The position numbers and the translations under genes are program-made. Under the pieces are notes generated by a model. The model was not told where the DNA came from, searched no databases, and was given only the letters and a program-made list of their open reading frames with translations. Positions 53,362 to 54,356 of a stretch of 64,000 bases of DNA are shown piece by piece; position 1 is the first letter of the stretch; each line of letters opens with the position of its first letter. Source of the stretch: Eledone cirrhosa (Eukaryota); the NCBI GenBank assembly GCA_964016885.1, contig OZ024740.1, positions 4,712,001-4,776,000 on the forward strand. Direction: 5' to 3'.

Positions 53362-53432
<71 letters not shown>

Positions 53433-53532
53433 TAAGTTAATGCAAATTAGTCTGCCCACTACTAATTTTCATAGAAAAAGCATATAACGATATGTGCTTT
53501 TACGATTCTCTAGAGAGGCCGGAAGATAGGTA

Positions 53533-53577
53533 AATATTGCTGATGAGTTGTAACAACAACGAAACTAGTTCAATATT
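53533..53577 (+). ncRNA. Minimal type I hammerhead, copy 1
   Basis: AATATTG-CTGATGA-GTTGT aaca ACAAC-GAAACTAGTT-CAATATT. Confidence 0.9.
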
Positions 53578-53999
53578 CCTTGTCTGGCTTTCTGGAGAAT
53601 AGAGGAAAGGTGTTTCCTCAAAAACCAGTATGACTCTAAAAACCGGTTTGTCTGTGTGTTTACATACAGAATAGCTGGCCACTCACAGTAAAGTGACCAG
53701 GGAAAAAACTTGGTACATCTACATATGTATACGTGTGTGTATTCATATACATACTAGTATTTCAGTATACATATATGGATGTACATCTTTAACTTAATTG
53801 TTTAAGCGTCAGTCATACAAAAGTGAGTTACAAACGAAACGAAATTTAATTTCGTTTCGTTATTTGTTTTTATCGTCTCCCTTGAACCGGTACTTACTCA
53901 CACTCTATGCAAATTAGTCTGCCCACTACTAATTTTCATAGAAAAAGCATATAACGATATGTGCTTTTACGATTCTCTAGAGAGGCCGGAAGATAGGTA

Positions 54000-54044
54000 A
54001 ATATTGCTGATGAGTTGTAACAACAACGAAACTAGTTCAATATT
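54000..54044 (+). ncRNA. Minimal type I hammerhead, copy 2
   Basis: Identical to 53533-53577, 467 nt downstream. Confidence 0.9.
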
Positions 54045-54356
54045 CCTTGTCTGGCTTTCTGGAGAATAGAGGAAAGGTGTTTCCTCAAAAACCAGTATGA
54101 CTCTAAAAACCGGTTTGTCTGTGTGTTTACATACAGAATAGCTGGCCACTCACAGTAAAGTGACCAGGGAAAAAACTTGGTACATCTACATATGTATACG
54201 TGTGTGTATTCATATACATACTAGTATTTCAGTATACATATATGGATGTACATCTTTAACTTAATTGTTTAAGCGTCAGTCATACAAAAGTGAGTTACAA
54301 ACGAAACGAAATTTAATTTCGTTTCGTTATTTGTTTTTATATATATATATATATAT

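Follow-up and report, generated by a model that had tools for sequence, protein, structure and literature searches.

What is the 467-nt repeat, carrying hammerhead ribozyme motifs, that stands almost twice over between two (AT)n tracts of the Eledone cirrhosa genome, and what copied it there? It lies in a window of 64,000 nt (the whole stretch of DNA that was analysed: positions 4,712,001 to 4,776,000 of contig OZ024740.1, assembly GCA_964016885.1), in a genome of 3.0 Gb that is rich in microsatellites. Our reading, to which we give a probability of roughly 0.6, is that the locus holds an insertion of 1.9 units of a high-copy non-LTR retrozyme, a non-coding repeat of 467 nt, likely moved in trans by a Penelope-like element (PLE) of the Neptune type and likely copied from a circle.

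Two matters are open in the literature on such elements: the enzyme that moves animal retrozymes, and the circle as template of their tandem copies. Retrozyme repeats show no motif pointing to an autonomous partner, according to the available text of a 2020 review (PMC7761336); the support offered in 2026 for an enzyme partner consists of co-occurrence and pLTR similarity (Li et al., bioRxiv 10.64898/2026.07.22.740005). The idea of the circle as template was proposed by Cervera and de la Pena in 2014 (PMC4209133) and 2020 (PMC7229834), as the accessible parts of those papers set it out. The element class is already known; the useful part here is a set of insertion ends that point to the carrier.

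The locus and its hammerheads

Tandem Repeats Finder returns 53440-54340 as a tandem repeat with period 467 and 1.9 copies, at 100%. The locus is laid out as follows.

53368..53427, no strand: left (AT)n target tract (sequence, repeat scan)
53428..53440, minus strand: 13-nt inverted arm, ending at the 'short' end of the family, unit positions 350-362
53440..53906, plus strand: unit copy 1, 467 nt
53533..53577, plus strand: type I hammerhead 1, predicted cut after 53570 (GUU) (pattern, fold, covariation)
53571..54037, plus strand: predicted 467-nt monomer or circle, highly self-paired (folding)
53907..54340, plus strand: unit copy 2, positions 1-434, stopping at the fixed 'long' end of the family
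54000..54044, plus strand: type I hammerhead 2, predicted cut after 54037 (GUU) (pattern)
54272..54340, plus strand: 'tail' of 69 nt from the short end (unit 365) to the long end (unit 434), holding a hairpin
54341..54358, no strand: right (AT)n target tract

Copy 2 agrees with copy 1 at 434 of 434 nt before it gives way to (AT)n. The 13-nt arm is the reverse complement of 53789-53801, and also of 54256-54268; it shares base 53440 with the long arm, and the two arms measure 13 and 901 nt. Both flanks being (AT)n, a target-site duplication cannot be read there. An earlier note, made from the letters of the window alone, had described two identical copies of a 467-nt unit and an inverted copy of an internal segment at the 5' end. 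The identity and the period stand; the copy number is 1.93 rather than 2, and the inverted match is real but lies one base away from the 53788-53800 that had been given.

The longest stop-to-stop frames wholly within the repeat encode 57-62 aa, and the locus holds no ORF combining reverse transcriptase (RT) and GIY-YIG domains, the mark of an autonomous PLE. Its 2-kb bins have 29-32% GC, low as in non-LTR retrozymes.

Hammerhead motifs. The cores start at 53540 and 54007. Each motif has the type I core CUGANGA...GAAA...UH, a helix I of 7 bp (AATATTG/CAATATT), a helix II of 5 bp and the palindromic helix III ACTAGT, and the predicted GUU cut sites lie 467 nt apart; pattern matching thus agrees with the earlier description of two intact hammerheads and of their cut sites. 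GUU is a slower hammerhead triplet than GUC. The suggestion that the palindrome suits a dimer also accords with computation, which gives ACUAGU no stable fold of its own (0 kcal/mol) and predicts pairing with a second copy at -4.8 kcal/mol. Within the 64-kb window, a search of Rfam returned 0 matches at gathering score.

Fold of the monomer. Against shuffled sequences the predicted fold has z = -9.5 as a linear molecule and -10.1 as a circle, and helices I and II reach pair probabilities of 0.63-0.99 in the circular fold. Within the family, helix II shows a double change from U-A to A-U, and the triplet is GUU or GUC. Among 13 representative monomers from three families, double changes affect 4 of 10 pairs in the stem of helix I and 3 of 5 in helix II; 82% of the cells are paired, against 31-50% when the structure is slid, in an alignment that holds only about three independent lineages and takes its structure from the locus's own sequence. 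The consensus fold of the alignment itself has 17 of 70 pairs with double changes. Counting double-change pairs gave no gain over shuffles (110 of 500 reached the count), in a control that ignores relatedness. Since helices I and II have been kept through compensatory changes, the ribozyme fold appears, from the sequences compared, to be under selection.

A dispersed family with two fixed ends

The unit belongs to a dispersed, multicopy mobile family, as expected of a non-LTR retrozyme. Genome-wide, a 20-mer near the 3' end of the unit has 10,431 exact matches, the exact 26-nt hammerhead pattern 5,251 (0 for the reversed control) and a relaxed hammerhead pattern 23,167, related families included. 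From unit position 434, sequence passes into (AT)n at 1,959 exact junctions and reads on into the unit at 7,530; the reversed controls gave 0 for both. Copy number rests on these pattern counts; a similarity search that scored 28 candidates undercounted the family badly. The best-scoring copies are 94-100% identical to the locus, one of them at 100% over 434 nt, and another subfamily has about 88-89% identity to its unit.

Could the locus nonetheless be an artefact of duplication in the assembly, or a minisatellite that is inert and resembles a hammerhead by chance? Its copies are 100% identical, and none of the contigs from four of six listed public runs (of a kind not recorded) spans it, both of which would suit such an origin; the same contigs contain the family, however, and one crosses the tandem junction. 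Thousands of dispersed copies with fixed ends, the covariation and the 0 matches to the reversed hammerhead control make this explanation extremely improbable. Assembly duplication, which the earlier note had listed among the findings that would overturn its reading, is not needed as an explanation, given a tandem junction found 7,530 times and the crossing contig from another public run.

Sister families. Related retrozymes have units of about 420 nt and of 466-540 nt, with 2,377 first-look candidates (examples are L046:8945-9501, L048:5280-5680, L097:8199-9192, L254 and L275). They share a similar branched fold (z -6.9 and -8.9), retain the palindromic helix III and, judged by eye, stop at two equivalent end positions. 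One hammerhead type, 'CAGCT' (905 matches, mostly single), was considered as a pLTR and rejected; it is an older sister retrozyme subfamily.

Insertion anatomy. We mapped 67 insertions, drawn from the locus itself, 26 regions of best BLAST matches, one chance encounter and 40 regions within the first 57 Mb of contig 1, chosen so as to include long arrays, which are over-represented in the sample. A long end (430-436) is present in 60 of the 67. In 45 it is accompanied by one inverted short end (357-367), in 11 no second end was detected and in four it is paired with another position; the remaining seven show other combinations. The fixed ends mostly adjoin (AT)n, and the tail between them measures 69-74 nt in the 467-nt family. 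Arm length runs from 13 nt, at our locus, to 30.7 units, most sampled arms being shorter than 2 units, so that the 13-mer is the shortest form of a second arm. The earlier note missed this, and the scale of the family: elsewhere the second inverted arm can be many units long.

Two fixed 3' ends with a tail between them, an inverted 5'-truncated arm and a microsatellite target form the signature of Penelope-like insertion. The inner junction of the arms, by comparison, can fall at any position of the unit: of 94 inner ends, 5 are within 5 nt of the predicted cut site, where 2 are expected, and since there is no pile-up at the cut, RT would usually read through it.

Penelope-like elements in the genome. 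The genome is rich in PLEs, with 10,597 GIY-YIG candidates, of which 150 were scored. One locus, L087, is an autonomous PLE, probably of the Neptune type: its 938-aa frame matches RT (just under the Pfam cut-off) and GIY-YIG, and carries the CX2-5CxxC zinc-finger linker common to Neptune and Nematis, the groups to which the available text of Craig et al. 2021 (PMC8557442) assigns it. Members of the L087 family show the two-end, inverted layout of the retrozyme insertions, with ends 64 nt apart in (AT)n. Several PLE families show hammerhead-like motifs in their 3' regions (L087, L090, L093, L099, L103, L104, L105 and L106), with core changes that include U at core position 3 (UUGAAAA, UUGAUAA) and GCAA or UGAA in place of GAAA.

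When the unit was compared with the 3' regions of 16 ORFs (from 20 long-frame loci), a small sample of PLE families, none contained a homologous PLE end; the comparison returned only AT-rich low-complexity matches and one nested copy of the retrozyme family. Likewise, a tblastn search of 191 overlapping loci of the family and its sisters with eight PLE proteins found PLE fragments nearby and no ORF joined to the unit at a common point. The carrier is for this reason assigned from the geometry of the insertions.

These comparisons bear on whether the unit might be no more than a pLTR, belonging to an autonomous PLE outside the sample. Its ends, inversion, target and minimal hammerhead are all pLTR-like, and with 150 of 10,597 candidates scored and the 3' regions of 16 ORFs compared, such an element might have escaped us. 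Yet unit position 467 continues into position 1 with no unique body, read-through outnumbers ends by 7,530 to 1,959, and the 191 overlapping loci show no common junction with an ORF; we hold this origin very improbable. The earlier note had named the pLTR as another finding that would overturn its reading, and nothing of the kind was seen in the 16 PLE ORF loci or in the 191 family and sister loci. Its other claims on the nature of the element fare well at family level: with frames of at most 62 aa and no ORF junction the unit is non-coding and non-autonomous, the fixed ends, inverted arm and (AT)n target agree with PLE-style insertion, and the youth it had proposed is borne out.

In all probability, then, the element is a non-LTR retrozyme, that is, a non-autonomous PLE, likely mobilised by a PLE of the Neptune type, the carriage being read from insertion geometry.

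Neighbouring repeats. Directly left of the locus, 53008-53369 is a palindromic end fragment of the L087 PLE family, with arms 98.6% alike, a hammerhead-like core UUGAAAA instead of CUGANGA, and ends 64 nt apart in (AT)n. Directly right, at 54358-54790, comes a third repeat of hammerhead-like type with its core at 54639; L278 and L362 contain 310-nt tandem arrays to which it is about 70% similar. Together with the locus these would make three PLE-type insertions side by side in (AT)n. A near-perfect palindrome with 162-nt arms between (AT)n tracts, at 51589-51917, is probably another. Elsewhere in the window a simple scan marks further hammerhead-like motifs at 21338 (plus strand) and 18770 (minus strand), and there are two satellites, about 6.4 kb of CAC/CAA at 32626-39027 and more than 5.3 kb of a 9-nt unit at 58660-64000.

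Circular or linear template

If the element is a retrozyme carried by a PLE, its insertion might proceed as follows. A read-through transcript of at least two units would bring two hammerheads together through the palindromic helix III, and these would excise a monomer, which, to judge from the class, a host ligase would close into a circle. A PLE protein with RT and GIY-YIG domains would nick both strands of an (AT)n tract. RT would start, once on each target end, at about unit 434 and about unit 360-365, the end positions seen in the insertions. Each cDNA would then follow the template round, over anything between 13 nt and tens of units, and a join between the two cDNAs would leave a mirror-image insertion. 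For the enzymatic steps there is a precedent: in vitro work with a PLE protein (Frangieh et al. 2024, PMC11167929, available text) showed nicking and extension of both strands of AT-rich DNA, and placed the PLE tail between two internal sites at which RT starts.

Arrays of a single sequence. The arrays themselves carry information on the template. One of them, L170, is a 9.3-kb insertion with arms of 6.9 and 12.9 units, whose 6 and 12 full monomers are all 18 of one sequence; this monomer has three differences from the nearest sampled unit and two private fixed alleles. L176 has six identical monomers with four differences from the nearest unit, and L172 has 20 monomers in arms of 11.3 and 11.6 units, with one recurrent and one single variant. 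In a set of 150 units that did not include L170, 135 had their nearest neighbour within their own locus. Apparent differences at monomer positions 107-110 and 130-138 are artefacts of gap placement and were not counted; masking them also hid the recurrent variant of L172.

Mosaic arrays. Two older arrays, L167 and L169, are mosaic, with variants that recur in non-adjacent units; a single circle read once would account for such arrays only with later unequal exchange. At L034:4252-5386 and L183:989-2035 the alleles of one arm belong to a different subfamily from those of the other (shared-type differences number 11 and about 4, respectively), hinting at two template molecules or two adjacent events. 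Alternating or period-3 patterns of variants run within the arrays L177:1911-4124, L172:838-6100 and L169; dimer or trimer templates, or unequal exchange, are possible sources. A trimeric circle had been considered for the period-3 pattern of one L172 arm and was dropped (shuffle test 0.08).

The same element and the same PLE carrier could also do without a circle, an array already in the genome being transcribed into a linear multimer that serves uncut as template, and unequal crossing-over restoring length after insertion, the route favoured by Li et al. 2026. In its favour, the open portion of Frangieh et al. 2024 (PMC11167929) reports that hammerhead cleavage is dispensable for PLE insertion in vitro, uncleaved RNA being the main substrate, and that RNA-seq reads stopping at the cleavage position were absent; of 9 Xenopus dimers in Li et al. 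2026, 1 was cleaved. Long homogeneous arrays exist as possible sources, a linear transcript of which would be expected to give homogeneous daughters too, most sampled arms are shorter than 2 units, and L167 and L169 are mosaic. Yet both arms of L170 consist of one identical monomer, and those of L172 very nearly so, which on the linear route would call for two independent, very recent expansions per locus or for a very long uncut transcript; the compensatory changes in helices I and II also count against it, the ribozyme fold appearing to be under selection. We consider the linear multimer unlikely.

Alternatively, RT might jump end to end between cleaved linear monomers at the hammerhead cut. 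This draws on a chimera at L299/L324 (contig 1, about 64.63 Mb), where the hammerhead of a sister family is joined at its predicted cut site to a Neptune-type PLE end that begins at that PLE's predicted cut, give or take one A in a run; the PLE end, which runs out into (AT)n, shares 79-94% identity with other ends of its kind. As a single case, this chimera also links the retrozyme group to Neptune-type RNA and so speaks for the main reading as well. A few sister-family copies also break at the cut site (about 6 among the 100 listed of 569, in a search without a control), and some arrays are mosaic. In the 467-nt family itself, 13 matches to the break pattern comprised one true break, nine small substitutions or indels and three fortuitous matches to sequence that is not of the family; a stricter pattern, used for the control position, gave 0 matches and so has no evidential value. 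Jumping sits badly with fresh arrays of a single sequence in a diverse family and with inner ends that do not pile up at the cut, and 292 of 295 distinct hammerhead contexts continue into cognate sequence, the chimera being one locus among the 295. We rate such jumping as quite improbable.

For the 467-nt family a circular RNA template is thus plausible, and on the pattern of the arrays we lean slightly towards it. More tentatively still, and at rather less than even odds, the family may be a genomic record of rolling-circle reverse transcription, in which a PLE protein docks on a ribozyme-made circle of 467 nt and rolls to both sides. Such a process would start at two sites about 70 nt apart, would leave mirror arrays of up to 10 kb or more per event, and would occasionally join the cut ends of retrozyme and PLE RNAs. 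The genome bears the two-start signature of PLEs on about two thousand insertions, together with long mirror arrays of a single sequence; these insertions offer genomic data, and in the 70-nt tail region a cis-substrate, with which both carrier and circle could be tested directly. The family also points to a steady supply of kilobase palindromes within (AT)n.

Comparison with known systems

Our literature search, confined to accessible papers without their supplements, found no published mirror arrays, fixed PLE ends or microsatellite targeting for retrozymes; supplementary material to the papers of 2020, 2024 and 2026 may affect how new the fixed ends and mirror arrays are.

EN+ Neptune PLEs. 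As these elements are described in the accessible text of PMC8557442, PMC11167929 and PMC4209133, they share with the 467-nt family partial tandems, an inverted 5'-truncated copy and a two-end tail, a microsatellite or AT-rich target, and a hammerhead with a short palindromic helix III that is thought to act as a dimer. Unlike them, the 467-nt family has no ORF, its whole element is the repeat, and its arrays reach 30 units. Its tail of 69-74 nt compares with 30-40 bp in the PLE literature (PMC8557442, in the part available) and 64 nt in the L087 family.

Chlamys elements. The non-autonomous Chlamys PLEs, such as MRC1, are likewise PLE derivatives with multicopy head-to-tail insertions, but they are generally without canonical hammerheads and share 3' sequence with an autonomous partner, according to the same available text (PMC8557442). 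The 467-nt family, by contrast, has a hammerhead, and partner 3' homology was not found in the 16 ORF loci.

Non-LTR retrozymes. As in the accessible descriptions (PMC7229834; Li et al. 2026), the family consists of non-coding tandem units, each with a type I hammerhead, of low GC, with a self-paired predicted circle, thousands of copies and co-occurring PLEs. Its unit of 467 nt lies above the 150-450 bp given in the available part of PMC7229834 and within the 51-972 bp of Li et al. 2026. Fixed ends, inverted arms and an (AT)n target are features of the 467-nt family that the available portions of these two papers do not describe. Circular RNA has been demonstrated for published non-LTR retrozymes, in the sources as accessible, whereas the 467-nt circle is a prediction from sequence. 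On the features that sequence can test, the family fits the non-LTR retrozymes, with cleavage and circle predicted.
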